DNA from: a virus
Lineage: Duplodnaviria > Caudoviricetes
Direction: 5' to 3' (one strand)
DNA: 58,602 nt
IMG/VR virus record: IMGVR_UViG_3300006893_000009
Location: 1-58,602 of that record
Positions 11,646-36,531 of this stretch are shown piece after piece. A program made the position numbers and the translations under genes. Every line of letters begins with the position of its first letter. Within the stretch, counting starts at the first letter, position 1. Under the pieces are notes generated by a model, which was not told where the DNA came from, ran no database searches, and was given only the letters and a program-made list of their open reading frames with translations.

Positions 11646-11721
11646 TGGCTGGCCCCCTCAGACTCGAACTGAGACAGTCTCCGTTAACAGCGGAGTGCAC
11701 TACCGATTATGCTAGAGGCCA
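11646..11721 (-). tRNA. tRNA-Asn (GUU) with encoded CCA
   Basis: Acceptor TGGCCTC/GGGGCCA, anticodon arm CTCCG-CTGTTAA-CGGAG, T arm CTCAG-TTCGAGT-CTGAG, 3' GCCA; 76 nt. Confidence 0.95.
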
Positions 11722-15507: not shown

Positions 15508-15865
15508 TGAAGTCTCCGGTAGAGCCATCGTCGAAACCAAGCTGGTCAACGACTTCTGATTCGCTCGTGGCTTTGCCAGTGTTGAACACAGTCTCCCAGT
15601 TCTCATCCCATGCTGCACGCTCAGACTTTGATAACATCCTGACTGTACCACGGCAAAAGTTTTTCAGTTCGAGTTCTGCTTTGGAATGATTGTTTGGTGT
15701 GCAGCCGCGAGCTTCACAAATATCACAGCGTTCAGGTAGAGCACCTTTCCTACCAGCTTTACGGGCGACATGATGGCTGCAAAAATAGGTCGCTTCAGGA
15801 TGGAGAGGCTCCGAGACGGTTAACTTGGTGGGACATTTAGACATACTGCACTGGATGGTAGGCAA
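15491..15865 (-). CDS. Cys/His-rich hypothetical protein
   Basis: C-x4-C..CSHH..CDIC..C; AAGGAG SD. Confidence 0.6.
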   Translation of the reverse strand: MPTIQCSMSKCPTKLTVSEPLHPEATYFCSHHVARKAGRKGALPERCDICEARGCTPNNHSKAELELKNFCRGTVRMLSKSERAAWDENWETVFNTGKATSESEVVDQLGFDDGSTGDFNADVE

Positions 15866-20011: not shown

Positions 20012-20012
20012 G

Positions 20013-21035
20013 CTAGTTCACCCCTTTTCCTTTGTATGCCTCCCGACGGTCAATCGAAACCAAAAGTGTCCCGCAACCACCTTCATCCTTATTGCAAGAA
20101 AAATTTCCCGCAACTTCTCCCTTCGGAATACGCCATTCCTTGAAGCAATTGGGACACGCTGCTAAATCTGTATCAACCTTGACATTGCCCTTGGTGCGAA
20201 CTTTATTGCGTACATCAGAATCCCACTTCTTTTGTCTATCTTCATATCCTTGGTACGTCATACGAATAGGTTCGTGATAATTTCCCGTCATGGTCTTGAA
20301 TTCGTAGTGCGCTTCATGACCACCCGGCCCCATAATCCAAGCCGTGTTATCAGCCATTGGTGCGAGAGCTGCGTGAGACTTTTCAAGCTGAAACCATACA
20401 CCAAACCTCTTAATATACGGCTTCATGGACTTGTAAACCGCTCCACGCTCTGAAGAGAATGAGAAGAAATTCTCTGTGGAACCCAATATCATTGGCGAGC
20501 CTGACCGAAACAAGAGCATTTTTTTGGGCTGGCGACTATCAAACGCTGCCCCAGAACAACTCCCAGACACCTTATTCAAAGTCTTAATAGCCTTCTCATT
20601 GATACCCGTGCTGTCAATAATGGCTCGAAGAATGTCTGAGTCAACTTCACCCACTCTTGTCAAGTTCAGACTAGAGAAAAGTGAGTCGTCATTGCTCAAA
20701 GTACCATTGTGAATGACAGCACTCTTACCAGCGAACAACGGATGGTTATTGTTGTTGTCCTTCGGTGAACCCTTGGTTGCATAGCGCGTATGAACCAAGG
20801 CTCCCCAAGTGTCTTTCTTCAAATACTTCTCAATGAAGTTCTCATACTCTTTAGTGCCGATGAATTGACAGGCTGGCGTATTGATTTTTAAAACATTCAG
20901 CTTGCCATCAACTTGAGACAGCACCACTCCAGAGGCATCATTACCGCGATGCTCATTGCCGTTAAGCAAGTGAGCAATCATTTCCTCTGTGATAGGTTCG
21001 TCTTTGTACCTAATCACTCCGCCTATGCCGCAAAT
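20013..21035 (-). CDS. Class II (Ntn) glutamine amidotransferase with C-terminal Zn ribbon; probable AUU start
   Basis: CGIGG, HRGNDASG, HTRYATKG, NNHP, HNG, VDSD; GGAGGG SD 7 nt before ATT-TGC. Confidence 0.88.
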   Translation of the reverse strand: MCGIGGVIRYKDEPITEEMIAHLLNGNEHRGNDASGVVLSQVDGKLNVLKINTPACQFIGTKEYENFIEKYLKKDTWGALVHTRYATKGSPKDNNNNHPLFAGKSAVIHNGTLSNDDSLFSSLNLTRVGEVDSDILRAIIDSTGINEKAIKTLNKVSGSCSGAAFDSRQPKKMLLFRSGSPMILGSTENFFSFSSERGAVYKSMKPYIKRFGVWFQLEKSHAALAPMADNTAWIMGPGGHEAHYEFKTMTGNYHEPIRMTYQGYEDRQKKWDSDVRNKVRTKGNVKVDTDLAACPNCFKEWRIPKGEVAGNFSCNKDEGGCGTLLVSIDRREAYKGKGVN

Positions 21036-21039
21036 ATAG

Positions 21040-21126
21040 CTACCCTCCAAGCTCTTTTTGAGCAGTTAAACGTGTCCACTGTTCACTTAGTGCAGTTTCC
21101 GTTCTATGACAGTTGGTACACACCAT
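21040..21126 (-). CDS. 28-aa coupled micro-ORF (not in ORF track)
   Basis: TGATG overlap with the ligase stop; MVCTNCHRTETALSEQWTRLTAQKELGG; stop 4 nt before the GATase ATT. Confidence 0.35.
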   Translation of the reverse strand: MVCTNCHRTETALSEQWTRLTAQKELGG

Positions 21127-22718
21127 CAAAAAGCAACATTCCCATTCACCTCAATTGCTTTCTTTTTGTGCTTCTTAACAATATCGTCTGGCTTCGGTGC
21201 CTCTTGACTCCCAAACTCACCAAGCATGGTTCCGATTAGCTTCTCTTCTGACTTTTTTTTAACCTTGAGGTACTCAGAAGGTTGGATGTCAGCAATCTTT
21301 TCATACGAAGTAATTGGAAAGAGTCCTGATTTGCACAAGAAAGTTTTCCACTTTGCTACGATACCCCGGTCAACTACATAGTTCTTCGCAATATCGGGCG
21401 GAATATAGATTGTTATTCTTTCAGTGTCATGTGTTTGAAGGAAGTGTAGTTTCTTACCGCTGAAAAGCTTTTCAAACTGAGCGCGCACGTTAAAGCCATT
21501 AAATTCATATTTGTCAGGAAGTACGATACCCGCCGACGAACTTGCGAACGTAACTTCAATCCCCTTTGAAAGCAAGCCCGCTGCAACCTCTGGCAGCCCC
21601 GGAACATGTGGTGGAATCTCAATAGGGAACACGTCCGCAGCTAAATGATACGGACTCCACGTTGGCTTAGGAAAATAGAATTCCAACGGAGTTCCTTCCG
21701 TAAGATATTGGAACAATTCATCGCAAGTATCTTCTGTCGGCGCAATGACAGGCGGATAATATCTACGTCCCTTTGCAATAGCTGGCTTTATAACATCTTT
21801 CTTTGTAGAAATCCCCCACGCCTTCTTGAAATCCGCTCCGCTGTACATGGGCATTCCATGTAGATACAATCCCACAAGCGCGATTCTAGCATCATCATCC
21901 ACATTGGCATACGCTCGTAAGAGATTCTCAACTGTCTGCCGACTCGCACCATCAGTAAAAGGATTGGATGCCATAGTCTCATTCAGTTGATGGAACGTAC
22001 AAAGCTTGGCAAGAGTTATTGTAAGAAACGCACTCCACGGTGAGTCTAACCATGTTGGCATGGTACGATATTCAAAGCCATGTGGTTGAAGTCTATAATC
22101 TCCGGGCTTGCCGTAATTTGTGCCACTTTGTCGAGCGAGTGACCCTTGTTTGTCAACCACATTTGTAGCAACAAGAAGCTTCGTTAAATGGTCAAGACTC
22201 GAAAGTGTTGGTTTAATCGCATCTTTCTTCTGTTTCCCAAAGTGAATGTGTCCACCGCATCCATCTGGCGCGCAGAATCCCGGCGCTTTCCAAGCATAGC
22301 TATAAAGTTTTGGGTTGTCATCAACCATATGCCGGAAGCAATCTACGATAGACGCAACAACCTCAAGCACGCTTTTGCTTGGATAAGCACGAATTTCTGC
22401 TTGGCGGCCTGTCATGTCAGCACCAAAAGCTTTAAGCGTATTAAGCCCCAAATTCTTTGTATAAATATAAGGCGTTCCACTTTGCGGATGAGCAAAGACA
22501 AACTCTGGGTCAGCGCCAACACTGAAGCGATTTACATGCCTTGGATTCTCGCTTCGCTTACATTTGGGCGCACCAAAGTATCTATTGCCCCATCGCTTAA
22601 GTATGTCATCTGGCGCAGCAATCCCTTGCTTGTGTGCAAACTCCATAAACTCATCTTTGCTGATTCTATGGTTTATGACCAACTCCATCAAACGTCTTTT
22701 TTCATCAGCGAATTGCAT
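21126..22718 (-). CDS. phiEco32-like COOH-NH2 ligase type 2 (copy 1, with C-terminal extension)
   Basis: GADPEF, AEIRAYP, GGHIHFG, YGKPGDYRLQPHGFEYRT. Confidence 0.88.
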   Translation of the reverse strand: MQFADEKRRLMELVINHRISKDEFMEFAHKQGIAAPDDILKRWGNRYFGAPKCKRSENPRHVNRFSVGADPEFVFAHPQSGTPYIYTKNLGLNTLKAFGADMTGRQAEIRAYPSKSVLEVVASIVDCFRHMVDDNPKLYSYAWKAPGFCAPDGCGGHIHFGKQKKDAIKPTLSSLDHLTKLLVATNVVDKQGSLARQSGTNYGKPGDYRLQPHGFEYRTMPTWLDSPWSAFLTITLAKLCTFHQLNETMASNPFTDGASRQTVENLLRAYANVDDDARIALVGLYLHGMPMYSGADFKKAWGISTKKDVIKPAIAKGRRYYPPVIAPTEDTCDELFQYLTEGTPLEFYFPKPTWSPYHLAADVFPIEIPPHVPGLPEVAAGLLSKGIEVTFASSSAGIVLPDKYEFNGFNVRAQFEKLFSGKKLHFLQTHDTERITIYIPPDIAKNYVVDRGIVAKWKTFLCKSGLFPITSYEKIADIQPSEYLKVKKKSEEKLIGTMLGEFGSQEAPKPDDIVKKHKKKAIEVNGNVAF

Positions 22719-23263
22719 TATACTGGCTCCCCTGTTGCCATTGAACCAATCTTAAGAGCGAAATTGAGCGAGTCTGGTTGCGCAGTTCCATGCATCCACG
22801 CTTCCTCACAAACTGAACTACACATTGGAACACCCCAACACTTCTTGAGTGTTTTGGCATCACAAATCGCACACTTCATATCTCGAAGTAGCAATTGATA
22901 AGCATTGGTCAGCTTACGATAGCAATTATTCTCAGCAGCGTGTGTCTTTCTTGGCGCACAGACACCAGTAACTCTACCACAGCATCTACACTCAGCACAG
23001 GCTGGCTTGTTACCAAGAAACTCAACTGCCCAATAACGGTATTCCCAGTTCTCAAACTTGAGAAGCGTATCGGCAAAGACCATCTCTTGTCTTTGGGTGA
23101 ACCCTTCACCTTGCTTCTTTACGTCACCAGCAATGTGATAGTTAGGGAAACCAACTACCTTTTTCGTCTTGGCTTCAACCAAGAGAATCCGCTTGGGCAA
23201 ACGCTCACCTGCACGCTCATGAGCCTTACGAATTAGCCAGCGCGGGACTTGGAGCACACTCAT
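22718..23263 (-). CDS. Cys-rich Zn-binding hypothetical protein
   Basis: ECRCCG..H..C, CAICD..WGVPMCSSVC. Confidence 0.65.
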   Translation of the reverse strand: MSVLQVPRWLIRKAHERAGERLPKRILLVEAKTKKVVGFPNYHIAGDVKKQGEGFTQRQEMVFADTLLKFENWEYRYWAVEFLGNKPACAECRCCGRVTGVCAPRKTHAAENNCYRKLTNAYQLLLRDMKCAICDAKTLKKCWGVPMCSSVCEEAWMHGTAQPDSLNFALKIGSMATGEPV

Positions 23264-23730
23264 AGATACCCCTTGATGATGTCTGGTGCATTTATTATCG
23301 TGACTCTCTGCCTGAACAACCAGCGATAAGGTTTACACCCCATAGGACGCCTGTGCTGGACTAATTTGTTATCGAACCAGACCAACTGTCGCGGTTCAGA
23401 CTGATAAATCTTGCCTTTGTACTGAATCTCGGTGGGCGAACTGCTAGCCCAAGTGACAATTCCGCAGTTCATGTCAGCACCTTGAGTTGTGTCTCCGTCT
23501 TGGTGCCAATCTTCGGCCTTCTTCGTGTCAAAGGTATACGTCCGCATCTCAGCATGGAGAGCCTTACTAAACCAATCCACTGTTTCCAATGGCCCATGCT
23601 TCGGGTCATAGTGAGGCATGAAGCCAATTGAATAGGTTTCATCAGTAAATAGCTTACCCATTCTCTTGGCGTCCCAATCTGAATCATAACGCGGACTGTA
23701 ATAGCCTAACACAACAAAGGGCTGTTTCAA
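23260..23730 (-). CDS. Putative 2OG-Fe(II) dioxygenase-like (DSBH) protein
   Basis: WHQDG (HxD), distal HRRP and RWLFR. Confidence 0.5.
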   Translation of the reverse strand: MKQPFVVLGYYSPRYDSDWDAKRMGKLFTDETYSIGFMPHYDPKHGPLETVDWFSKALHAEMRTYTFDTKKAEDWHQDGDTTQGADMNCGIVTWASSSPTEIQYKGKIYQSEPRQLVWFDNKLVQHRRPMGCKPYRWLFRQRVTIINAPDIIKGYL

Positions 23731-23754
23731 CTTTATCTCCTAAAGAATTCTTTC
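23731..23754 (-). repeat. 24-bp direct repeat covering an RBS, copy 1
   Basis: CTTTATCTCCTAAAGAATTCTTTC, identical at 25331-25354. Confidence 0.85.
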
Positions 23755-24204
23755 CCAAAGGTCAAAGTGGCCATGATGCTCAATACCGGGAAAAGACCCT
23801 AAAACTTTCCAATCGTTATTAAGCAGGAGAGAAATCTCCTCCTTATTGGCTTCATCAACTGTTGCCATCAACCTTGTAAAACCAACAAGACATGCTGCCT
23901 TAACCTTCAAATTGTTAAGCTCAGTCCCAATTCCCTTCTTACGGAACTCATTCTCAACGTACATATTGTGTGACCAACAAATTGCTTCACACATTGGAGC
24001 TTGTGAAAGCTTAAATTGTGCTACAAACTTTGGTTCCAGGAGTGTTCTCAATGTGGCATTGACGCATCTATCCCCTTCAATCACATACACCGTTAATGTA
24101 TATTGAAAAGACAGGCCGCAACCTTTGAACACTAGTTCCAGTGCCGCTTTAAGTCTATCTCCCATATTCGCGGATATGTCTGCGACGACTTCCATCTCTT
24201 TCAT
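23740..24204 (-). CDS. GNAT-family acetyltransferase
   Basis: YVENEFRKKGIGT (RxxGxG), ATV..N..W. Confidence 0.8.
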   Translation of the reverse strand: MKEMEVVADISANMGDRLKAALELVFKGCGLSFQYTLTVYVIEGDRCVNATLRTLLEPKFVAQFKLSQAPMCEAICWSHNMYVENEFRKKGIGTELNNLKVKAACLVGFTRLMATVDEANKEEISLLLNNDWKVLGSFPGIEHHGHFDLWERIL

Positions 24205-24219
24205 GTTCTCTCCTTAAAG

Positions 24220-24482
24220 AAAAGTGTTGAAGAGGCTGACCCAACATACAGCCTCCCCTCAACATTGGCTCTGACCGTTTATATTCGCGGACGCCCTTAA
24301 CCGTCGCTAAGGTGTCAGTTAGCCAGCTACTTAGCCACCCTAAAGCGGGCTTTCGCCTATTGCCGCTAGGCGTTTGAGCAGATTATTCAGCCGCTCGCAC
24401 ACGCCATGCCCATTACAGGCTTCTGCCAACCTATTGGTTGGACTTAAACTTGTGCAGCTAAGACCCATTATAAGGTGGGTCT
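24220..24482 (-). ncRNA. Unclassified structured RNA B ending in a terminator-like hairpin
   Basis: ORF-free; stems AGCUGC/GUAGCU, CCAACC/GGUUGG, GGC-GAAA-GCC, GGCU..CUGAC/GUCAG.AGCC, GUUGA..GAGGCUG/CAGCCUC.UCAAC followed by UUUUCUUU. Confidence 0.55.
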
Positions 24483-24651
24483 AGTACTTCGGGTCTGGCC
24501 AAACTGTGTCAATATATTTGGCAAGTATCTTCATAACTGCAATCGTGCCCCATTTAAGAGCATAAGCTTGTACAATCTTGAGCATCTTTCGATTTGCTGC
24601 TGCTTTGTCACGCTTAAACCGTGACATTGAAGTGAATTTGTATGCTTTCAT
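24481..24651 (-). CDS. Small basic protein (not in ORF track)
   Basis: MKAYKFTSMSRFKRDKAAANRKMLKIV..; ATGA overlap with GGCT. Confidence 0.5.
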   Translation of the reverse strand: MKAYKFTSMSRFKRDKAAANRKMLKIVQAYALKWGTIAVMKILAKYIDTVWPDPKY

Positions 24652-25151
24652 CCTTCACCGCCCATCTCAAAATCACCACCAATCTCATATTCAGGAAACA
24701 AGTAATCATCCCTGTCAGACTTCAACGAAATGTTTGGCGGGTCTTGCTCAAAGCATCCACCCGGAATCGCGCTTGCATAAGCCATCCCCGGATACGTATG
24801 TTCATAAACCCACGCTGGCACTACGCCTTCAACAATGCTCGCATCCTCAGCGAACACATTCACATCCACCATCTTGCGCGTATAGGTAAACCCATTGTTT
24901 TCAAGGTAATCCAGCCACGGCCAAAGATACGTCGGCACCCTGAACAGTTCCCCATAAGCTATCTGGGAAACATCTTTCTCAAATCTCAAACCCACGCCAC
25001 CTCCAATGGGTCTTAGACTAGCGCCTTCTATGGCTGCAAGTCCAATAAACTGTGCTTGATGCTTCTCAAGGTCAAGCTGGAACCCGCGCTTGAGTATTCC
25101 GTAAACAAATAAATTCTCATGCTTGTATGTATCTTTGTCGTATTGTGTCAT
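24648..25151 (-). CDS. Gamma-glutamylcyclotransferase (AIG2-like)
   Basis: LFVYGILKRG, YGELF, LDYLE..Y.R, AWVY. Confidence 0.85.
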   Translation of the reverse strand: MTQYDKDTYKHENLFVYGILKRGFQLDLEKHQAQFIGLAAIEGASLRPIGGGVGLRFEKDVSQIAYGELFRVPTYLWPWLDYLENNGFTYTRKMVDVNVFAEDASIVEGVVPAWVYEHTYPGMAYASAIPGGCFEQDPPNISLKSDRDDYLFPEYEIGGDFEMGGEG

Positions 25152-25330
25152 CGTTGTATCCCATGAGACGGATTGCGCTTTGCTGGCACGCTGTACTCCA
25201 CCTTAGGGCACTCTTGGCCACACTGAATTTCTTCGGTAAGCACCCTTTCACAAAGCGCAAGCTTGGCTGTACGTGGCATAACCTTCTCAAACATGCCATG
25301 TTGTTCGCACATGAATTCAAAAATTGGCAC
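25148..25330 (-). CDS. FmdB-like zinc-ribbon protein
   Basis: MPIFEFMCEQHGMFE..C..CG. Confidence 0.7.
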   Translation of the reverse strand: MPIFEFMCEQHGMFEKVMPRTAKLALCERVLTEEIQCGQECPKVEYSVPAKRNPSHGIQR

Positions 25331-25354
25331 CTTTATCTCCTAAAGAATTCTTTC
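25331..25354 (-). repeat. 24-bp direct repeat covering an RBS, copy 2
   Basis: Identical to 23731-23754. Confidence 0.85.
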
Positions 25355-25599
25355 GCCGCTGAGCGTAGGGTTGTGTCCAGTCCTAATGCTCATTGAGGCC
25401 CGGATGTACATACCACAACGCTTCAACACGGGCCTCAATGCTTAGTGACCCGCTCCGCGCCGCTTAACGGTATATTACATTGTACCTTAACTTGCATAGT
25501 GACAATACGCTGTCAGTCTCCCGACCAACATCGACCCATATAGGGCCGCTGCTATACCACCACCGTTAGGACGCGTTTGCATCCTATCCAGCGGCGAAA
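25351..25599 (-). ncRNA. Unclassified structured RNA A (~250 nt)
   Basis: Closed by perfect 11-bp UUUCGCCGCUG/CAGCGGCGAAA; internal 12-bp CAUUGAGGCCCG/CGGGCCUCAAUG, AGGAUGC/GCGUCCU, UAACGGU/ACCGUUA, GUC-GGGA-GAC, UGACA/UGUCA. Confidence 0.65.
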
Positions 25600-25603
25600 C
25601 TTG

Positions 25604-25846
25604 TTAGCTAATCTCGCCCATGAGCCAAAACATATCGCCTTGAGACTCATTAAACTGTTGGGTCGTCGTGGTACGGTTTTCACACGACAAGGCCATGCAA
25701 ATCTTTTGGCCGCCCACAATCCTTGTTGCAAATCGGCCGCACCTACAGATAAACTTTTGATTGACCGTGCCAATTCCATGACACGTCTCGCAGGGCCGAT
25801 TGCTTACAAACTTCATCCCAAGACAATTTGGGCATCGGACAATCAT
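25604..25846 (-). CDS. DnaJ-type Zn-finger-like small protein
   Basis: CPNCLG..CETCHGIG..CRCG. Confidence 0.6.
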   Translation of the reverse strand: MIVRCPNCLGMKFVSNRPCETCHGIGTVNQKFICRCGRFATRIVGGQKICMALSCENRTTTTQQFNESQGDMFWLMGEIS

Positions 25847-26151
25847 TGAGAAAGTGCCCACTTACGCAGAATTTTGTAATTAGTCCCATAAAAATGTTGG
25901 CAACCAATTTTAATTGACTTAGGGTATCTTGTTACTACTGCCCACTTTCTCCTGTGTCTCAGACCAGAACGATAAGGTATTGTTACATAATTGGTGTACA
26001 ATGGCGTTCGCATTGCAACTCCAATCCATTTGCGTGATGCAGAGTAAGGTGTTTCAGAGTAAAAAATATCGAAAGGATATACAGCCCGTATGTGGCGCGA
26101 ACCCAATTGAAAAACCTCTCCACTCCGCGAAGTAACTATTAATCTTTTCAT
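25843..26151 (-). CDS. Hypothetical basic protein
   Basis: ATGA overlaps on both sides; IKIGCQHF. Confidence 0.55.
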   Translation of the reverse strand: MKRLIVTSRSGEVFQLGSRHIRAVYPFDIFYSETPYSASRKWIGVAMRTPLYTNYVTIPYRSGLRHRRKWAVVTRYPKSIKIGCQHFYGTNYKILRKWALSQ

Positions 26152-27173
26152 GCGATGTGAAACCTCTCATTCTTCAGATTTGCACGCAACTGAATCGTTG
26201 TGTCAACCATATCGTAGCTCCAAAGGCCACCATCAGTCAACTTCCAGTTGCTTTCAATATCTTCAGGAGTTTTTAAGACGCTCTCAATTCCATGCATCCC
26301 AGTCTTGAATAATCTATCACCGGATGACTTTCCAATGAAAGAGAAGAAACTCTTGTTCGCCTTCAAGATTTTCCGTGCTGCGACCACATCCCCTTCGTTG
26401 ATGATTGCCTTAACCTCATCTCCGATTGGATTCCAGTAAATCTTTTCACCATATCTTACATCCATCAGCACCTTTCTTGCAAGCTCAAAGACCATTCGCA
26501 TCACAAATGGTGAGCAAATCCAGAAATTTGATAGCGTTCGATACTCAATTCCATACCGATTGAGTGCATACTTCGGACGGCGATGCTCGCCAGCCTTCCC
26601 ATAATACTGTCGTCGAACTGGACTATCGAAGGATGCTGCTGCTCCTACAGCCCATATCCCCAAAATGGCATCGAAAGTCTTAACCAAATCCTCATACCAC
26701 TTGTTGTCTCTCTTCTCACCAACCTCAAGATGAACATGCCCACCCGCAAATCTATACAACAATGCTCGCGGGTCACCAACATAGAGCCTTTCCTCACCAT
26801 AAGCATTATAGCTTGGCATACATCCAAGCTCTACATAGCCATCAAGCAAGGAATTCATCAACTTTGTAGGAATCTTCACGACGCTATCAAGACTCAACTT
26901 CGCGCTATTATCCCTTGCGCGTGCTTGCTTTAGCAGCTCTTTCAGAAAGTTTTGTTGCAACATAATCATAAAATTGAGACAAGTCCATCCCCGACTCAAC
27001 TTCCACTCAGCTTGAAATCCATCCCAATACAACTCTCCTGAATTAAGTTCAACATCGGGATGTCCCACCTTCAAACCCGCATCCTTTGACGGCAAAAAGT
27101 CAAACGCAGGTAACAATTTTGCCTTACTCTTTACGAAAATTTCAGGGTCACACCCCAACGACGGTTTTACCAT
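26148..27173 (-). CDS. phiEco32-like COOH-NH2 ligase type 2 (copy 2)
   Basis: LGCDPEIF, DGFQAE, LGCMPSYNAY, RFAGGHVH, RRQYYGKAGEHR, GIEYRTLSNFW; GGAGGT SD before ATG 27173. Confidence 0.9.
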   Translation of the reverse strand: MVKPSLGCDPEIFVKSKAKLLPAFDFLPSKDAGLKVGHPDVELNSGELYWDGFQAEWKLSRGWTCLNFMIMLQQNFLKELLKQARARDNSAKLSLDSVVKIPTKLMNSLLDGYVELGCMPSYNAYGEERLYVGDPRALLYRFAGGHVHLEVGEKRDNKWYEDLVKTFDAILGIWAVGAAASFDSPVRRQYYGKAGEHRRPKYALNRYGIEYRTLSNFWICSPFVMRMVFELARKVLMDVRYGEKIYWNPIGDEVKAIINEGDVVAARKILKANKSFFSFIGKSSGDRLFKTGMHGIESVLKTPEDIESNWKLTDGGLWSYDMVDTTIQLRANLKNERFHIA

Positions 27174-27327
27174 CTCCCACCTCCCGTTTAGCCATAGGAA
27201 CTCTTGAAAAAACCCTGACTGCACACTTCGCGTCAGAACAAGTCTCTTTACGAATCAAGCCATCAGTGTGTTTCATTGTCAAATACATAACACCTACTGG
27301 CCCTTTACACCTTGGACAAGTTGTCAT
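27148..27327 (-). CDS. Small Zn-binding protein (not in ORF track)
   Basis: MTTCPRCKGP..TCSDAKC. Confidence 0.45.
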   Translation of the reverse strand: MTTCPRCKGPVGVMYLTMKHTDGLIRKETCSDAKCAVRVFSRVPMAKREVGDGKTVVGV

Positions 27328-27396
27328 TGCTTATTAGCCTTTGCAGCTAGAGCCATCGCACGATAGCGCCAATAGACAGCAGCCGCATACCATGCT

Positions 27397-27776
27397 TCAG
27401 CATTTGCGGTTGTACATACCCAATATTCTCATTTTGTTAGCTACTATAACTTCTCCACCATATTGCTTGCCACGCGTATGTGCCTCTTGGTATTCAACTT
27501 TGAATATGGCCCCATTAACCCAAAGGCGGCGTGCATCTCGCCACTTTTCAAAGATATGAAACCCACTCTTGTATGACAAGAAAGGAAAATCACGGGATAT
27601 GCGAGTCTTTGATGCTTCATACCACAAATTTTGTTTGTAGGTTACATTCGGCAAGACATAATACGCTCTATATAAGGTTTTTGTACCATTGTACACATCA
27701 TAGCTAACTTTGAACACCTTATACCCAACTCCTGCTTTTTTCTAGGCGCGAAAAACTTCACACTATCAAGACACAT
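27397..27776 (-). CDS. Hypothetical protein (MCL..GYKVF..GFH pattern), split at an A-AAA-AAG run
   Basis: Frame 0 MCLDSVKFFAPRKK; the -1 frame continues AGVGYKVFKV..SGFHIF. Confidence 0.5.
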
Positions 27777-27812
27777 AGAAGTGATGGTCAGCGTTGCATT
27801 TGCCTTTAGCCA

Positions 27813-30800
27813 TTATCTCAAATGCTCCTTCGCAATCTTCATCGCATATGGCAACAACATATTATTGCAGCCATACTTATGCATCTCTCCAGATGTCCAA
27901 TCAACCAACCCCAAGATGCCACGAGCGTTCACTTTATTCCCTTCACCACGAAACATGCACAACTTTGCCATGCGCCTTCCAACAACTCTTGCACGCGCAA
28001 AGATTGCATTCACTTCGCGCCTTGCAAGTTCATGCCGAAACTGTTCAACTGTTAAGCGCGATTTGAGGATTGAGCCGAGCATTTAGCAATCTCCTTTTCA
28101 AACGCTTGCAACAAAGTCGTGATAACCTGTTCAATCTTAAGCTGAATCAGCACTGGCGGCGAGACTAAGCCTTCAGCTTCCGCAATATCATGAAGAATCG
28201 CCCGTGTTGCCATTTCAGCGATTTCAATAACCCTGTGCGAGCTTGGCTTAATCATAAAAGTTAGAGTTCCTCTCCCTTTGTGATGTAAACCTTTGTTGCT
28301 GCTGCTTGCTGTTGTGCGCGCGCACCCTTTGCAGCCTGCCGCTCGTTGTATCGCTTCTGTGAGTCAAAGTGTGGCTGGCTCGTCTCGTGTCTGCGCGAGA
28401 ACCACTTAGCCTTGCGTGCTTCTGCCGCTGATGCAAATCTCGCTTCGCTCATAGAAACTAGCTCCTCACTCGTTTGTCTGAACATTGTACATCACAGCAA
28501 ACTGCGTTCGCAATGACGACCTGAATTGTCATTCGCTCATCCCCACCCAAATCACGAAGCTATTTCCCCACCTCAAAAGGGTCGAGAGCACTTTGAAGCT
28601 CACGCTCCCAACAATATAAGCCATCACCAAAAACCACGTCATCACGATGATAAAGAATGCCGACAGAAAGATTGTGACGAAAACGCTTGCAATGTCACTC
28701 AACATGAGTAAACCCGCACCTCCGACAAGTTTGTGTTTCAAACAACCAAAACCGTCCCCAAGGATTCTGATAAGTTGCCCTATCCTTGATGAAACTATGT
28801 GGGATAAAGTAGGCGCAAAAGTGCGTTCTATACCATACCCAAAATTTGATTTTCAGTTGCCGCATTACTTCACACCAACCTTTATGGAATCAAGCCATTT
28901 CTTGTCACTCACCGTCAATCGCAACTCATCGGGATTCTCTGGATTAGCAATAATCCCTCTCTTGTGGTCATCCATGTGCATCTTCAGCAGCAAAGCTCCT
29001 GCTGATTCCCGATATGTCCGAAACACACGGTGACAAAGTTCGCACTCAGTGAGATACTGAGGATTTCCAAAAGCATCATGAGCTGGAACTTTGTCATCGT
29101 CCATGTTTCTTCCTTAGACGGCTTGGGGAATTAAACCGTCTGAAAAGGAGGTGGGTAATCTGTGCAACTGTGGAAATTGTCGGCGGCTGGAAAGTTAGGA
29201 AATAAACAGAACGCCATTGTGAACGCTCTACTAGATTCTCTGCCTCATCCATGATGGCTGGTTGAATCATCTCCGCACTTGACCATTGTTGGATATGCTT
29301 GACGCCCGTTGTGCCTTTCAATTCCTTAATTCTGGCTTGTCTTGCCTCGACTTCGAGAAATCTTTCTACTGTTTGCATCCCTGTCCTCCTTTATGAACGA
29401 GATTTGAAAACCAATCAACGCTCCGAAGAATACACAAGCTATATATTGATGTACAATCAACGAAGATACTGCCAGGTATCCAAATATCGCAGCCGCAAGG
29501 TAGTGTCTCAAGATGCCTTCTCCAAAGCTTCAACCGCTGCCGTCAACTTCAACTTAGTGACTTCCTTGCACCAACAAGGTTTCGTATGCTTGTACGGCTG
29601 CAAACAGCTTCCCTTCGATTGCTTGTCTGACATGCGCATCCGAGTAGCGAACAGCCTACCCTTCAACTTTCTGCGCATATCCTCCAAATTTCTTGTTAGC
29701 TTCAACGATTCAAACCCTGTAATGTCACCATTCGCAATGGCAATGCTGATTTGCGAATCAATCCTATCAAGTTCCTCATTGTCAGCCCCAAACTGTGCTC
29801 TGCCGTACACCGTTACACCTTGTCCAGTGCATCAGTAATTTCCGGCTGACCATACAAATGAGTCAGACTGGCAATGATGTTTTTCACGCTGAGATGCGAA
29901 AGAGCTTCTTGCGTGAATGTTAGCGACCCAATCGGCCATGAATAAACCACTTGATTTTTCATTGGACCCTCTCTGCCCAATGCACCATAATGAATCTTCG
30001 AGTGCTTACGCTCACCTGTTTAAGCTCTCTCCAGAGTGACTTAATAACTCTCTGTAGCCATGTCGTCTTTTTATCTTTTCCCATCACACAGTTATAGGCA
30101 TCAACCTGAGACATACCATTAGCCATGTGATACCTAATAGCTTCTTCAATCTTTGAACTACGTGAACGATGATTAGGAATCATGCTGGTTGCTCCCCTTC
30201 AAACGATTCACCGGATGCTCGCCGGAAAAACTCATCCAGCTCTTCGGAAGTCTTGCGCTTGTCACAAATCTCAGAATATGTGTTGTATTTCGCAATCTCT
30301 TGCGCCATCACAGCAGCGGGTTTAGCAAGACCTGTCGGCACAATAGCCTCTTGCTTCGGCTCTCTTGCCATCAAATCACGCTTCCATTGTCGAAAGCGTT
30401 CATCACGCAATTCCCTTGCTTCGCCAATCGGTCTGTCGCTCATTCTGCACTCTCCCACTTAACTAGAGTCTTAACAGCGTGCTTATAACACACTTTCGCA
30501 ATCCTCTCGCTAACCCAAAGCAACTGTTTCCAAGGAAACGCAAAACTCACGTTATACCCTTGACGCCGAATTGGGGTTCCTGGCGCTGTCATGAGATAAT
30601 CCTCAGCGTATTCAGCCAAACAGTCAATTCCTGTATGACAATCAACATTCCCCATACAATGCAATAAACTGTGGCGAGTCTTGAGAAGAATCTTCCCATT
30701 GCGTCAACGACCCTTTGCAGGTGGGATATTCAGCCTGCATAAACTGGTGTGAAACTCACCCTTCTGACTGGGATGCTTGCAAACTGTGCAAACAACGTGA

Positions 30801-31270
30801 AAATCAGACTTGATGGCTGCTTTCATCGGCTGCTCCCTTTGGCGCTTCGGCTTTCACAAAAAAATTCGACCTCAGCTTTAGCCTTTGAGTAACCTTGCGC
30901 CTAGCTTGTTTACACCTGTTACAGACTTTCCGATAGGTATCGAGTTTAGCATCTACCGTAATCACTATATGGCAATGGTCACCCTTGCATTGTGGGCAAT
31001 AGTGCCAGCATTGCATGTCGCTTATGGTAGATGCAAAGCTCATGCCTTGGCTGCCTCTACTTGCAAGCGCTTAAGCTTAGCCCGCAAGTCACGCCTATGA
31101 ATTCGGCGCGCCTGACGCTCAAAATCCGCCACAGACTGTCTCAACGGCCTTCCACACTGTCGCACATAGGTAATGCCATTGACTTCCACAGGCACACCTC
31201 CTAGTTAAAACACAACATGCAAAGCACAAAGAGCATGAAATAGCCGAAATCAATACACTTTGCTCGCATT
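27813..31270 (-). other. Block of about 15 small, tightly packed early genes of unknown function
   Basis: Overlapping 45-100 aa ORFs with SDs, e.g. 27813-28082, 28052-28255, 28261-28485, 28865-29104, 29094-29378, 29508-29810, 29959-30183, 30180-30458, 30804-31043; several carry Cys/His motifs. Confidence 0.6.
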
Positions 31271-31365
31271 GAAAGCTCCTAAGCCAAACCCTTACAGACG
31301 TTCTGATGCGGTTTGCTCATGTGATAGCGCGCTAACTGGCTGTAGTGCTCATTAGCGGCATATAT

Positions 31366-31424
31366 TACCCTCATCAGTGCCAGTATTACTGGCATACGGG
31401 GGAAGTAATCCCCCGTTTCGGGTA
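31366..31424 (-). ncRNA. Type II hammerhead ribozyme
   Basis: UACCC-GAAA-CGGGGGA-UUACU-UCCCCCG-UA-UGCCAGU-AAU-ACUGGCA-CUGAUGA-GGGUA: all core nucleotides and three perfect stems; predicted cut between 31395 and 31394. Confidence 0.9.
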
Positions 31425-31437
31425 TCCCCCGTTTCGG

Positions 31438-31692
31438 TTAGACCGCCTTGGCTGGCTTTTCTGCAAGCTCGCCAGCGTGTTGTTCGATAAACGCGCTTAT
31501 GTCGCTAGTGAAAGCAAGCAACGCTGTCCATTGCGAGCGGTACAGGGTAAGCGGGAATCGGCCCATGCCATATACGCTCACGCCGCCCTTCTCGGAAATC
31601 TTCAGCGACAGCTTACCCGTACCCCTTGACTTCAACTGACCCTCAAGCTGGGCGATACGGTCTTTCAACTGCTCGTTAGTTAGGTTGTCCAT
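31438..31692 (-). CDS. Conserved-looking hypothetical protein, first gene of the early arm
   Basis: Coiled coil followed by LSLKISEKGGVSVYGMGRFPLTLY..QW; AAGGTG SD. Confidence 0.75.
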   Translation of the reverse strand: MDNLTNEQLKDRIAQLEGQLKSRGTGKLSLKISEKGGVSVYGMGRFPLTLYRSQWTALLAFTSDISAFIEQHAGELAEKPAKAV

Positions 31693-32254
31693 TGTTCACC
31701 TTTACCGAATCGGGTAAGCCAGTCGTTAAGTGGTGATTAGTGGCTGGTCACTTGCCGATTGCGGTCGCTTCTCACAAAAAAATTTCCGATAAAGCTATCC
31801 CATATCCTGCCTATAGAAAAGGCTATGGGCCGCGCGCGTGTGCGTGCGTCAAATGGTTCACCCAAGACAGATTTCTGAAATCAGAAAATGTTCATAAACC
31901 CTTTAGAATGAGTAAATATGGCTTCTTTTGCCTATATTGATAAGAAAGGGGTTAATGAGCCTTTGTGGGTTGAGGGCAAAGGACTTATGAATGGGTCCTA
32001 TCTACTTTATTATGAATAAGTTAATTAGGGGAGAAATCTACTTGTTGAGAACAAATGACTTAAGCCCTTGTGTGAACATCGCGCTGGGACCCATACGGTA
32101 ACCTATAAACTATTTTCAACTATTTTCACTTTGCTCTGCATAAAATTCCGGCTGTACCGTATAAGAAGTATCACCTGCGCTTGGTGCTACGGTGATACGA
32201 ACTACTCCGTAGTTCGCCGCACGCGGCTTCTCAAAGCGTAGTGTATATAAGACT
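31693..32254. other. Divergent intergenic region; likely physical terminus, packaging site or origin
   Basis: Strand switch; AT-rich; repeated TAAnnCnTTT..TCAA-like words; promoter P3. Confidence 0.55.
32137..32169 (+). promoter_or_regulatory. Phage promoter P3 (late/structural arm)
   Basis: TGCATAA-N13-CCGTATAAGAAGT upstream of terS, followed by leader hairpins GTATCACC/GGTGATAC and CGAACTAC/GTAGTTCG. Confidence 0.75.
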
Positions 32255-32689
32255 ATGGCCCGACCAGAGAAAACTGAAGACTGGCATATTAGCGCAGTAG
32301 AGTTAATGGCTCGGACCGGGTGCTCTCTTAAGCAGGCTGCAACCGAACTGGCTATACCCGTTTCTATAGAGGAATGCAATCTTATTCTTCGTAGGTCGGG
32401 TTTTTCGCGTTTGCTCTGGGAGGCTCGACACAGGTATTTTGCTAATCTGGCGTCTGACCCAAACTTCAAAAAAGACACTATGGTGGGCAAATTGATTACT
32501 TTGGCCCAAAAGCTTGAGGAGGAAGGTAAGCATGATGCAGCGAGCGAGGTCTGGTTCAAGCTTGGGAAGACTATGGGGTGGGTCGGACCTGAATCTACAG
32601 TTAGCGTCTTCGGTGAATTGTCTCAAAGAGATATGGATGCTATTAGGGAGAAGGTTAAGAAGGAAGGCATAAAGCCGAGGGTGCAGTAG
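32255..32689 (+). CDS. Putative terminase small subunit
   Basis: N-terminal HTH-like helices; directly upstream of TerL. Confidence 0.6.
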   Translation: MARPEKTEDWHISAVELMARTGCSLKQAATELAIPVSIEECNLILRRSGFSRLLWEARHRYFANLASDPNFKKDTMVGKLITLAQKLEEEGKHDAASEVWFKLGKTMGWVGPESTVSVFGELSQRDMDAIREKVKKEGIKPRVQ

Positions 32690-34233
32690 TGAAGGCGCAA
32701 GATGAGAGGTTGTCTAAGGCTTTCTTAGAGTTACAGCGACTTCCAGAGGAACAACGGCTCCTAGCCATTGACCTTCTTGAAAAGAATCGCCGTAAGAATA
32801 GTTATATCAAGTACTTTGAGCCTTGGTCTGAGCAAAAGATTGCTCTGGAGAAGTTCACAGACAAGATTAAGGTGTTTGGATTGTTGGGCGGAAACCGCTC
32901 TGGTAAGACAATCCTTGGTGCGTTTATCGCTGTCGCGTGGGCGCTTGGAAAAGAATACTTTAGGGATGAGCCAGTGTGGGAGTTCATTAAGGACCTCCCC
33001 ATCCCAGAGCCTCCGAACAATATATGGCTAGTGGGACTGGACTTCGGAGTTCTGCGCGATGTAATCTGGTATGAAAAGCTGCGGCATGGGAAGAACCATC
33101 CGCCATTTCTTCCGAATGATTCGAGTGTAATTCGGAAGGTTTCGGATTCAGACTTCCAAGTCTTCTTCGAGAACGGTTCATTGATGACTGGGAAATCGGC
33201 TGATGCTGGGCGGGAGAAGTTTCAAGGCGCTTCCGTTGACCTAGTTTGGATTGATGAAGAGTGTGATGAAGGGGTTTATGATGAATGCTACCAGCGGACC
33301 GTTGACTGTAGTGGCAAAATCCTACTCACTCTTACTCCTCTCACAGATATTAATAGTGGCGTCCGTACTCCTTGGGTGTATGACCTCTATGAGGAATTCC
33401 GCGTTGGTGGTAGCGATGCTCAGTTTTGTCAGCTTTCAACAATCAATAGCCCTTTTGTCCCCCAAACTGAGAAAGATAAGCTACTTGAGCGATGGAAAGG
33501 GGACCCTGAAGAGGGAGCAAGATTGTATGGGGAGTTCGTCCGCAGAAGTGGATTAATTTACATTGACTGGGACCCAAAGGTCCATGTTATCCCAGCGAGA
33601 CATATCCCACAGCATTGGCAAAGGATTGTGTCGATTGACCCGGCCGCTACAGGAACAAACGCTGCTGTTTGGATTGCGATTGATGATGATTCCAATATGT
33701 ATCTGTATCGAGAGTATTATGAAAAGAATCACATCGTCAGTGAGCACGCAAAGGGAATTAAACTTAAGAATGCTGGTGACCCCGTAGACATCTGGCTCCT
33801 CGACCCAACTTGGGGGAACCAACGGAATGCTGAAACTCATAAGACTGGTGCACAACTTTGGCGTGAAGCTGGTATCCCAGTCAGACTTCCAGATGTCGGT
33901 GAAGATTTTGGACTAGCAGTCTCAAGAGAATATGTGAGGGCGACTACTCAACCTGCCCCGCGACATCCTAAGTTCTATGTTTTTGAAGGGTGCCCTAATT
34001 TCATTTATGAGATTGGGCATTACACTTGGGATACATTTGCGAAGGGTGTTAATAAGGGACTGTCAAAAGAGAAGCCCCGGAAGCTTAATGACCATGCCAT
34101 CAACGCTTGGCAATATGCTTGCACTCTCAGACTAAAAGGCAAGCGGAACGTGCAGAAGCGTCGAATGATAACTGAGTGGGATGAGTTGATGGACAGTGTG
34201 AAAATAAGTGGAAATAACAAATCGTACACGTAG
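32689..34233 (+). CDS. terL: Terminase large subunit
   Basis: Walker A GGNRSGKT, FQG..VWIDEE, TLTP, SIDPA, NDHAINA. Confidence 0.93.
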   Translation: MKAQDERLSKAFLELQRLPEEQRLLAIDLLEKNRRKNSYIKYFEPWSEQKIALEKFTDKIKVFGLLGGNRSGKTILGAFIAVAWALGKEYFRDEPVWEFIKDLPIPEPPNNIWLVGLDFGVLRDVIWYEKLRHGKNHPPFLPNDSSVIRKVSDSDFQVFFENGSLMTGKSADAGREKFQGASVDLVWIDEECDEGVYDECYQRTVDCSGKILLTLTPLTDINSGVRTPWVYDLYEEFRVGGSDAQFCQLSTINSPFVPQTEKDKLLERWKGDPEEGARLYGEFVRRSGLIYIDWDPKVHVIPARHIPQHWQRIVSIDPAATGTNAAVWIAIDDDSNMYLYREYYEKNHIVSEHAKGIKLKNAGDPVDIWLLDPTWGNQRNAETHKTGAQLWREAGIPVRLPDVGEDFGLAVSREYVRATTQPAPRHPKFYVFEGCPNFIYEIGHYTWDTFAKGVNKGLSKEKPRKLNDHAINAWQYACTLRLKGKRNVQKRRMITEWDELMDSVKISGNNKSYT

Positions 34234-34278
34234 CAGAGAATAAAATGATTCAGAATTTTGTCTTCGAGATTGGTCATC

Positions 34279-34532
34279 CCAAGAAAAAGGAGAAGAAAAT
34301 GATTGCAGGATTCTTGAAGGTAGTTCCAGAGTTTGTAATTCAGGGTGGTGTTGGCTACGTTGCTGGCGCATTTACACCCGCAATTGGTAGAAAAATCAAG
34401 GCATTGTTCGTGAAGGATGCGGATGCGCTTAAGGTTGATGTTGCTAAGGCCGACGCGAAGTTGAAAGTTGCGCAAGCGAAGCTAGATGCGAAAGTGGCTG
34501 CTGCTGCTTCTGCCGTCGAGAAGAAGGTCTAA
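34279..34532 (+). CDS. Small membrane-anchored coiled-coil protein
   Basis: AAGGAG SD; hydrophobic N-terminus and Ala/Lys-rich tail. Confidence 0.55.
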
Positions 34533-35044
34533 TGAAACTACTCAAATATCTCTCTCTAGCGACAGTCTTTTTGCTTGCATCTTTGTTTACTCCGATTGCT
34601 CCGGCAACGGTTAAAGCACCGAATAGCAAGCTCGTTATCTATGTAGGTTCGTTGTGTCAGGACCAAGATGATGTTTGTCGTGCGGTGACTGCTAAGGTAG
34701 TGGAGTTGTGCAAGACTAGTGAGCTTCCAGTTGTTGATAAAGCGGCTGGTACTAAAGACCCCAGTGGCCCGGAGATTGATATTCAGAGTATTCCGGTAGA
34801 TGCACAGAAGAGTGCAATCTCTTTCATTGCCATCTATCATGTACAAGGCGTTCCCTATCAAGCTTGGCTTGACTTTAGAGTCTCAAAGGCTCCCATTGCT
34901 AATGATGAGAAGTCAGTTGCCAATGCCGCAGGGGGAATGGTTGAACTCTCGATGCAGGCTTTTAAAGACTTCCTTAAATGGGAAGCACAGACTTCACAGG
35001 CTCCTGTTGAATCTCCAGCACCAAAAGACTTGGACAAGACCTAA
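34532..35044 (+). CDS. Secreted/periplasmic hypothetical protein
   Basis: Signal peptide MKLLKYLSLATVFLLASLF..APA. Confidence 0.65.
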   Translation: MKLLKYLSLATVFLLASLFTPIAPATVKAPNSKLVIYVGSLCQDQDDVCRAVTAKVVELCKTSELPVVDKAAGTKDPSGPEIDIQSIPVDAQKSAISFIAIYHVQGVPYQAWLDFRVSKAPIANDEKSVANAAGGMVELSMQAFKDFLKWEAQTSQAPVESPAPKDLDKT

Positions 35045-35068
35045 TCCACTTTCAAAGGGTCCTCAACT

Positions 35069-35692
35069 ATGCAAGGTAAACAGCAGATAGTGGCATATTT
35101 CGTTCGCCACGGACAATGTGAAGCTAATGCCGAGGGGAGATTCCGTGGAACTAAGACGGACTATCCTCTTTCAGCACAAGGCCATCATGAAGCTCAGGAA
35201 CTCGCCGATTACTTCTCTCATATTAAACTTGGTGATGCTTGGACTTCTTCAAAGCAGCGTGCTGAGCAGACGGCTGAAACTGTTCTGGAGCCGCTTGGTA
35301 AAGTAGCGAGTCCCACAGAAGGGCTACATCCTTTAGATGTTGGTTATCTTTCAGGGGAAAAGAAGGCCAACCATACAGATGATATTAAGTATTTCCAAGA
35401 ACATCCTCAAACTGAAATCCCCGGTGGCCAAAGTATTCAAGAGTTTCGTAACAAAGTCAAACCCCATATCCTTCTTCCGATTCGACGGGGCATCGAGAAC
35501 GGGGTTCCGAGTATCACTTTTTCACACTCCAGCATCATCCATGAGGTAGGAAACCTCATTCATGGTGACCACGGTGCAGCTCTGGTGAAACCGGGCGGTG
35601 TAGCAGCAGTAACTTATGATGGTAAGTACTTTAGGGCACATGCGGTCTTCAAGCCTGCCCCAAAGAGAGACAAACAAAGTATAATGACTTAG
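35069..35692 (+). CDS. Histidine phosphatase (phosphoglycerate mutase family)
   Basis: YFVRHG, LSAQG, SSKQRAEQTA, PGGQS, FSH. Confidence 0.9.
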   Translation: MQGKQQIVAYFVRHGQCEANAEGRFRGTKTDYPLSAQGHHEAQELADYFSHIKLGDAWTSSKQRAEQTAETVLEPLGKVASPTEGLHPLDVGYLSGEKKANHTDDIKYFQEHPQTEIPGGQSIQEFRNKVKPHILLPIRRGIENGVPSITFSHSSIIHEVGNLIHGDHGAALVKPGGVAAVTYDGKYFRAHAVFKPAPKRDKQSIMT

Positions 35693-35698
35693 GAGGCA

Positions 35699-35890
35699 AT
35701 GATGGCTGAACCAATTAAGGCAGCGTCAGAATCAACAGAATGTTTAGGGCAACATCGTTATTTCGCTCTTGACATGATTATCGAGAACGATTTTTCAGTA
35801 ACAATCCCATTGATTTGCACTCAATGTGGTGGTCTCAAACTTCACAATCTTCGCATAAAAGCGAAGGAAATCCATAAAAAGGAAAAATAA
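35699..35890 (+). CDS. Small Zn-binding protein
   Basis: C..H..CTQCG; AGGAGG SD. Confidence 0.55.
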   Translation: MMAEPIKAASESTECLGQHRYFALDMIIENDFSVTIPLICTQCGGLKLHNLRIKAKEIHKKEK

Positions 35891-35892
35891 AC

Positions 35893-36531
35893 GTGGCTAT
35901 TACTACTAATAACATTCAGTGGATTGGGCAGCCCCTTGCGGCAGCGGCTCAAGGTCAGCGTATGAATTCAAATGATAGCGGGCCGTTGGGCCAGAACCTC
36001 GTTGGTATTGTACAGTTGACTCTTGACGGCGTTGCAACGACTACGACTCTAAACTTCATTGACGGTACTCAGAAAGTGTACCAGAACGTATATGTACTGC
36101 CGGTTTTGTCGGTTGCGGCTCCGGTAACCATCGGTGGCGTGGCAAACCAAGCTGTCTTCTCTGGAGTTGGCTCTTACGGGCTGCTTCGTGTTGGTCAGTC
36201 TGTGACGTTTGCGGGCTTCACGAACGCGGGTAACAACGGAACCTTTACCATCAATGCTCTGACGACTTCCAGTATTCAGGTTACCAATTCTAGCGCGGTT
36301 GCTGAAACCAACCCGGCTGGCACTGTTACCTTGGCTATTGGTCCGGTTGCCGTAGCTTATCAGGTTGCCCGTGTGTTGGTTGGGCCTAATGGCGTGGCAG
36401 ATACAGCGGCTTCTTCGACCACGGCTATTGTCACGGCTCAGTCTCTCGCTTCATTGTCCGTCACTATTTCGTCTGCTGGTTCGGTTAGCCAGCTTTGCTC
36501 GTTTCTAGTTGAAATCTGGCCACTCTCGTAA
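35893..36531 (+). CDS. Putative virion structural/decoration protein
   Basis: Thr/Ala/Gly-rich beta protein; contains the VTFAGFTNAGNNGTF insert. Confidence 0.6.
   Translation: MAITTNNIQWIGQPLAAAAQGQRMNSNDSGPLGQNLVGIVQLTLDGVATTTTLNFIDGTQKVYQNVYVLPVLSVAAPVTIGGVANQAVFSGVGSYGLLRVGQSVTFAGFTNAGNNGTFTINALTTSSIQVTNSSAVAETNPAGTVTLAIGPVAVAYQVARVLVGPNGVADTAASSTTAIVTAQSLASLSVTISSAGSVSQLCSFLVEIWPLS

Follow-up and report, generated by a model that had tools for sequence, protein, structure and literature searches.

The window analysed here is the whole of the IMG/VR virus record IMGVR_UViG_3300006893_000009, a complete or near-complete linear genome of 58,602 nucleotides (CheckV estimate 91%) from an uncultured tailed phage, and on its minus strand, at positions 31366–31424, we identified a complete type II hammerhead ribozyme. 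The genes of the window lie in two blocks. Leftward (minus-strand) genes run from about 31692 down to about 5287, rightward genes begin at 32255, and the GC skew switches at the same place. The ORF list and its translation give, as the first well-supported leftward open reading frame (ORF), a cistron of 84 amino acids (aa) of unknown function (31438–31692, minus strand) that ends with the stop codon UAA at 31440–31438. The ribozyme follows this cistron and is itself followed by a leader and the next small ORFs (31040–31365, minus strand; ORF list and direct reading). All genes neighbouring the ribozyme are on the minus strand.

Structure of the ribozyme

The ribozyme is supported by direct reading of the strand, by folding, by an alignment to the Rfam family RF02276 (Hammerhead_II) and by a search with a structural descriptor. 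Read from 31424 to 31366, the minus strand begins with the 5' strand of stem II (UACCC, positions 11.x, 31424–31420) and continues with GAAA, which comprises G12, A13 and A14 (31419–31417) and A15.1 (31416); the RF02276 alignment makes the same assignment. Stem III has eight base pairs, formed by ACGGGGGA at 31416–31409 with UCCCCCGU at 31403–31396 around the loop UUACU, and consists of the pair A15.1 (31416)–U16.1 (31396) and seven more (CGGGGGA with UCCCCCG). The dinucleotide UA, made up of U16.1 and A17 (31395), leads into stem I, in which UGCCAGU (31394–31388) pairs with ACUGGCA (31384–31378) over seven base pairs around the loop AAU, or over six base pairs around the loop UAAUA in an alternative pairing. 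The core strand C3 to A9 (CUGAUGA, 31377–31371; direct reading and RF02276 alignment) and the 3' strand of stem II (GGGUA, positions 10.x, 31370–31366) complete the structure.

The hammerhead core is intact. C3 U4 G5 A6 N7 G8 A9 are all present as CUGAUGA, G12 A13 A14 are followed by the A15.1–U16.1 pair, and the residue after U16.1 is a non-G (H17), namely the A at 31395, which gives the triplet GUA. Stems I, II and III comprise 7, 5 and 8 base pairs without a mismatch, and G10.1 (31370)–C11.1 (31420) closes stem II. Stems I and III are capped by loops (AAU and UUACU) and both ends of the RNA leave through the open stem II, so that the element is a type II hammerhead by definition. Hammerhead numbering places the predicted scissile bond 3' of A17 (31395) and 5' of U1.1 (31394). 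A sequence-only reading of the window had proposed a complete type II hammerhead cut at this bond and lying 14 nucleotides after a gene. We recovered every element that it named, and the motif begins at the 14th base past the stop codon.

As an isolated RNA of 71 nucleotides, the element has the three-way junction as its minimum free energy (MFE) fold (−30.8 kcal/mol, z = −3.67), and none of 200 shuffled sequences was equally stable. A descriptor that demands the core words, the A15.1–U16.1 pair, H17 and stems of at least 4/3/4 base pairs finds a single site when both strands of the 58,602-bp window are searched, at 31366–31424, where the stems measure 7/5/8 base pairs. When the window was shuffled 300 times with its dinucleotides preserved, two of the shuffles contained any such relaxed match.

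We favour the view, with a probability of roughly 0.78, that this is an active type II hammerhead of the compact form described below, which would cut a leftward polycistronic RNA between 31395 and 31394.

Hammerheads in related phages

Relatives of the phage were chosen by the large terminase subunit (TerL) alone, which yielded 17 viral contigs with 53–74% identity, 12 of them extending 1.5 kb or more upstream of TerL. Three of these 12 (L007, L009 and L014) carry canonical type II hammerheads, on the same strand and within the same block of small ORFs. L007 has two copies, at 2115–2054 (a) and 1683–1626 (b), that bracket one ORF, and L009 carries the same two sequences; L014 has one copy at 2776–2718. 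The canonical copies start 0–6 nucleotides past the stop codon of a small ORF, and no family was found for the small ORFs beside them.

The window, L014 and L007b copies share 80% column identity in a structural alignment (A2) and show compensatory changes in all three stems. Stem II reads ACCC/GGGU versus UGGC/GCCA versus GGCC/GGCC, and in stem III a G-C pair is replaced by A-U and U-A. The terminase-relative loci are the only unbiased sample for covariation. A covariance model built from A2 (R1) scores the window copy at 81.9 bits by construction, the window copy being in its building set. The same model gives 32.7 bits to a degenerate hammerhead in a complete relative of 61 kb (L016:1955–2027, minus strand), which lies 18 nucleotides after an ORF of 103 aa, has C at position 16.1 and carries an additional U where A9 meets stem II. 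A1, a MAFFT alignment of four hammerheads, proved structurally wrong, and we discarded it.

Comparison of near-identical relatives shows how these elements come and go. Between L007 and L009, identity of 99.9% extends to a point 3 nucleotides beyond the 3' end of hammerhead b. With L018 and L010, L007 shares 99.8–99.9% identity until about 40 nucleotides before hammerhead a, and beyond this point L018 has a different ORF. The near-identity around the differing unit identifies the hammerhead-ORF-hammerhead unit as an indel between near-identical phages (L007/L009 and L018/L010). Such an indel, the occurrence of hammerheads at non-orthologous places in the relatives' shared variable region, and a duplication at the 5' edge of the window ribozyme (see below) would also fit an element of module boundaries, one that travels with or delimits cassettes of small ORFs and whose core and hairpins serve as recombination junctions, with cleavage secondary. 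This role is compatible with the active ribozyme that we favour, but as the explanation of the element we consider it very unlikely. The breakpoints number only two, one of them inside the upstream ORF, no hammerhead-to-hammerhead recombinant was seen, the window has a single copy, and the strict conservation of the catalytic residues points to selection for catalysis.

A compact subclass of type II hammerheads

At least 116 stretches of viral contigs fit a pattern made up only of core words and two gaps. The matches listed include 114 new loci, and 49 of these have a hammerhead that satisfies the descriptor; the other 65 may be chance matches to the pattern or hammerheads with bulged stems. 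Together with extra copies in the same loci and the terminase loci, the listed matches yield 82 distinct hammerheads. We kept 81 for the counts that follow; drawn from about 50 contigs, they are not independent of one another. The descriptor match in L103, with a 'loop I' of 32 nucleotides and a stem III of 4 base pairs, was dropped as an evident false positive. Two loci are especially rich: L025:2151–5076 (plus strand) has nine type II hammerheads in about 2.9 kb, each between small ORFs and often with GGAGAA after it, and L124 has eight descriptor matches.

The 81 hammerheads fall into a pseudoknot type (n = 27), with a stem II of at most 3 base pairs and a loop I of at least 6 nucleotides, a compact type (n = 38), with a stem II of at least 4 base pairs and a loop I of at most 5 nucleotides, and 16 others. 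[quoted passage not shown] The compact type, which is defined in this analysis from viral contigs, has conserved features of its own: U at position 1.7 in 37 of 38 (pseudoknot type, 3 of 27) and a stem I hairpin of exactly 17 nucleotides in 28 of 38 (0 of 27). An A directly 3' of stem II is present in 29 of 38 compact and 20 of 27 pseudoknot-type hammerheads, and an A directly 5' of stem II, partly explained by stop codons, in 32 of 38 and 23 of 27. The window ribozyme belongs to the compact subclass, with its stem II of 5 base pairs, its 17-nucleotide hairpin UGCCAGUAAUACUGGCA, U1.7 at 31388, and an A on either side of stem II at 31425 and 31365.

Conserved features of this kind argue that the compact architecture works and relies on a different tertiary contact. 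Most type II hammerheads possess a pseudoknot, of 4 base pairs or more, that is critical for fast cleavage at low Mg2+, and 'many' hammerheads appear to use neither the pseudoknot nor the classical contacts (Perreault 2011, PMC3088659). A review describes tertiary contacts in type II as 'usually Watson-Crick' and notes that types I and III conserve a reverse-Hoogsteen pair (De la Peña 2017, PMC6155905). By analogy with types I and III, the U at position 1.7 may mark a reverse-Hoogsteen-like contact, and U1.7 of the window, at 31388, is accordingly a candidate for a non-Watson-Crick tertiary contact.

Placement behind stop codons and a 16-nucleotide duplication

The listed hammerheads are closely tied to stop codons, counting only those that close an open frame of at least 50 codons on the same strand. 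The ribozyme starts −3 to +20 nucleotides from the last base of such a stop in 70 of the 81, compared with 9.4% of random positions on the same strand. The commonest gaps are −1 nucleotide (24 cases) and 0 nucleotides (11 cases), together 35 of 81. The ORF that follows, counting those of 50 codons or more, begins a median of 23.5 nucleotides past the ribozyme and within 60 nucleotides in 72 of 81, and a Shine-Dalgarno-like word is found within the first 25 nucleotides after the ribozyme in 57 of 81. With such tight spacing to the stop and to the next start, the ribozymes fill the intercistronic spacer almost exactly. We found no statement of this stop-codon rule in the open-literature passages and listed search results that were covered.

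The window ribozyme is set further apart. It begins 13 nucleotides past the stop, and the next start is 96 nucleotides (an ORF of 22 codons) or 170 nucleotides (an ORF of 51 aa) beyond it. The 13-nucleotide offset is due to a tandem duplication of 16 nucleotides at 31408–31439 (minus strand; 15 of 16 positions identical), which was identified by a repeat search as family D1 with a spacing of 16; Tandem Repeats Finder at a score of 30 did not list it. The downstream copy of the repeat comprises the stem II 5' strand, GAAA and the stem III 5' strand, and the upstream copy begins with, and overlaps, the stop codon. Were the duplication absent, ribozyme and stop would overlap, as they do in most other phages. 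With the loosest descriptor, a second and weaker hammerhead register can be formed through the upstream copy; it has a stem II of 2 base pairs and would cut the same bond.

Assessment of activity

Several observations weigh against an active ribozyme, the first being its Rfam score. The sequence-only reading had offered Hammerhead_II as a check. The alignment to RF02276 does run end to end, over model positions 1–66 of 66, with E = 0.0022 in a 301-nucleotide scan against all families and E = 1e-4 for this family alone across the genome; however, its score of 26.2 bits falls below the gathering score of 37. The hammerhead was not reported when the whole window was scanned with Rfam, whether at the gathering threshold or with E up to 1. 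Both results are what one might see if hairpins and core-like words had come together by chance, or if the structure belonged to the plus strand or to the DNA. We find this explanation barely credible. The window has one site, as against the rare relaxed matches in shuffled sequence, and its stems greatly exceed the relaxed minimum. Relatives show the same architecture built from different stems, no hammerhead core is present in the plus-strand complement, and the neighbouring genes all lie on the minus strand. The seven RF02276 matches listed in six other hammerhead-rich loci score 25.1–36.1 bits, all below 37, as does the L014 copy, with 28 bits on the whole record (G001). We read the low score as a limit of the RF02276 model, which evidently represents the pseudoknot type, and not of the motif.

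Other adverse observations concern folding. The best pairing between loop I and the 3' tail of the window ribozyme has 3 base pairs, all A-U, short of the 4 or more of a pseudoknot, and activity at physiological Mg2+ is therefore not assured. When the RNA is folded in contexts of 96–251 nucleotides, stems I and III persist, but in the MFE folds the G-run of the upstream repeat copy pairs with CCC(G) of the stem II strand and G12 in a hairpin of 4 base pairs. The hammerhead fold then lies 1.7–5.4 kcal/mol above the MFE, and its equilibrium share is 0.03–2.7% in a nearest-neighbour model that has no tertiary term.

A third group of adverse observations concerns conservation. With filters off, no hammerhead was found in 8 of the 12 terminase relatives with upstream sequence. 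Nor was one found near homologues of the upstream 84-aa ORF, either in the locus L004 (45% identity) or downstream in four of four metagenome loci (54–59% identity), again with filters off. The ribozyme is therefore not tied to that gene family; it is a sporadic, modular feature of a variable region that is not bound to one gene. In an alignment of 75 sequences (A4), 96.8% of cells are paired, compared with 31–43% when slid, but this covariation is largely circular, since all sources except the window and three terminase-relative loci were picked for descriptor-valid stems.

Taken with the decayed copy in L016 and with the looser packing in the window (13 nucleotides after the stop and 96–170 nucleotides before the ORF that follows, where the medians are about 0 and 23.5 nucleotides), the missing pseudoknot, the competing hairpin and the patchy distribution could describe a slow or silent hammerhead, kept by descent, damped by the hairpin of the duplication and left over from cassette exchange. 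We judge this to be unlikely. An intact core with three perfect stems is unexpected in a decaying element, and the compact subclass is abundant and has the conserved U1.7 and 17-nucleotide hairpin noted above. Moreover, cleavage is irreversible, so that cutting can go to completion even if the active fold has only a small share at equilibrium; the competing fold predicts slower cleavage, not none. An active compact hammerhead thus remains our preferred explanation of the element.

Proposed role

The ribozyme could act on a leftward transcript as follows. Once the 59 nucleotides are transcribed, stems III and I would fold as local hairpins, and stem II (UACCC/GGGUA) would then close the three-way junction. 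The 2'-OH of A17 (31395) would attack the adjacent phosphate, the Mg2+-assisted chemistry of the hammerhead family leaving a 2',3'-cyclic phosphate and a 5'-OH (PMC8782182; PMC6765202). The mRNA of the 84-aa cistron would be freed with a short 3' untranslated region, the G+C-rich hairpin of stem III and a ...GUA end bearing the 2',3'-cyclic phosphate, and the RNA downstream would carry a 5'-OH at its start, where the stem I hairpin lies. A likely use of such cleavage would be to uncouple the stability or the translation of the first cistron from that of the small genes downstream. The direction of any effect on stability depends on the RNases of the host. An RNA with a 5'-OH end escapes the RNase E activity that is stimulated by a 5'-monophosphate, and in the glmS case such an RNA is a substrate of RNase J1.

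The placement of the listed hammerheads suggests a further, rather doubtful possibility, namely that phage type II hammerheads are gated by the ribosome, with cutting licensed only once the upstream cistron's translation pauses or comes to an end, and that the compact subclass uses a contact beyond the Rfam model. Since the hammerheads abut or overlap stop codons, a terminating ribosome would cover the stem II strand and GAAA. Were this the case, cutting of the mRNA would be coupled to translation, and the duplication in the window would have put the ribozyme just outside the ribosome footprint and added a competing hairpin, thereby providing a natural test variant.

The phage and the neighbouring genes

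The 84-aa ORF has a good Shine-Dalgarno sequence, AGGUGA, 4 nucleotides before its AUG. A search of viral contigs returned no relative, no Pfam or PHROG family was found, and its Atlas look-alikes are only hypothetical proteins. Downstream of the ribozyme, the hydrophobic ORF of 22 codons (31201–31269, minus strand), which has its start at 31269 and AGGAG 6 nucleotides before its AUG, may encode a small membrane peptide, or nothing. It is followed by the ORF of 51 aa (31195–31040, minus strand) and by one of 79 aa that begins at 31043 and overlaps the stop of the 51-aa ORF; no family match was found for either.

The rightward block begins with a conserved ORF of 144 aa (32255–32689), for which no family match was found and which by its position is probably the small terminase subunit, followed by TerL (32689–34233), a portal protein of the SU10/P22 type and a capsid protein. 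The leftward block codes, among others, for a PD-(D/E)XK nuclease, AAA ATPases and a DNA polymerase A with an N-terminal domain of the uracil-DNA-glycosylase superfamily (8476–10899, minus strand). The region 19250–27224 (minus strand) contains two COOH-NH2 ligases of the phiEco32 type, an ATP-grasp protein (RimK-like), a glutamine amidotransferase and an ORF resembling gamma-glutamyl cyclotransferase, which may together form a module for peptide or amino-acid ligation. A sigma-factor-like ORF at 14992–15651 (minus strand; phrog_1740, E = 1e-11) suggests that the phage redirects the host RNA polymerase and does not bring its own. A family search for a T7-type RNA polymerase found no match, yet the controls of that search were silent too, so this result carries no weight.

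In Rfam searches for other ribozyme classes, no family but tRNA (one gene at 11649–11721, minus strand, 57.3 bits) reaches its gathering score in the window, and none does so in the 17 terminase loci. This tRNA and a match to Transposase-1 RNA are all that the window shows at E up to 1. The latter (23030–23089, minus strand; 27.5 bits against a gathering score of 42.8, E = 0.089) is inside a coding region and is probably a chance match.

The sequence-only reading had placed the ribozyme behind the first early gene. It is indeed on the coding strand and follows the first well-supported leftward ORF, and the leftward transcript is probably early, as gene order suggests; minus-strand transcription of the ribozyme region is likewise inferred from gene order. 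A search for RNA sequencing runs matching 27000–36000 listed none. A scan of 30500–32800 found no sigma-70 promoter, although the sigma-70 consensus may not be that of the host, and no terminator-like site in the same scan adjoins the ribozyme. The comparison with T7 that the sequence-only reading had drawn does not hold. TerL is less than 27% identical to its listed matches in cultured phages, which shows that the phage is not T7-like, and the sigma-factor-like gene and the phiEco32-type ligases also speak against this framing. At the DNA level, 29500–33500 had no match among cultured phages. The interpretation first given to the ribozyme is thus partly supported.

Comparison with known systems

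Hammerheads between small phage ORFs, type II included, have been known since 2011, with thousands of phage hammerheads now described, and the window copy adds one more; as a single element it carries small weight. Standard Rfam annotation misses the compact subclass, and counts of ribozymes in phage metagenomes are therefore probably underestimates. The placement of hammerheads behind stop codons, with the 16-nucleotide displacement in the window, offers a testable handle on what phage hammerheads are for.

Early genes of T7 are separated by the host RNase III, which cuts double-stranded RNA between cistrons and leaves hairpins at the new ends, with a 5'-phosphate and a 3'-OH. In contrast, the RNA of the window is predicted to cut itself, leaving a 5'-OH and a 2',3'-cyclic phosphate, in a phage that is not T7-like.

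The T7 analogy aside, self-cleavage between cistrons is the standard published hypothesis for hammerheads of phages and prophages (Perreault 2011, PMC3088659; Weinberg 2019, PMC6765202), and their function is still called open in the accounts of PMC6765202 and PMC6155905. The type II hammerheads of bacteria and prophages (RF02276; Perreault 2011, PMC3088659) share with the window ribozyme the permutation, the catalytic core and the site between small, poorly conserved phage ORFs, as well as the proposed role of turning long phage transcripts into gene-length mRNAs. Some of these, in prophage clusters, flank genes and cleave both in vitro and in E. coli (PMC3088659). However, the published consensus (PMC3088659) has a stem II of 2–3 base pairs and a pseudoknot of at least 4 base pairs joining loop I to the tail, whereas the window ribozyme has a stem II of 5 base pairs, a loop I of 3–5 nucleotides and no pseudoknot.

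In Desulfovibrio vulgaris, cleavage of three type II hammerheads beside hypothetical and phage-like genes was shown in vivo, with cyPhyRNA-seq, as well as during transcription in vitro, so that the class is active in cells (PMC8782182). Those hammerheads are at chromosomal, prophage-like loci of a cultured bacterium (PMC8782182). Another parallel is found in the haloviruses HF1 and HF2, which are lytic tailed viruses with a hammerhead in an early polycistronic transcript, before an early helicase gene (PMC3088659). There a mapped 5' end is at most 3 nucleotides from the cleavage site, and the hammerhead lies 13 nucleotides upstream of a start codon (PMC3088659). The HF1/HF2 hammerhead is a core variant in an archaeal virus, whereas the window motif has a canonical core and is tied to the preceding stop codon (PMC3088659 for the haloviruses).

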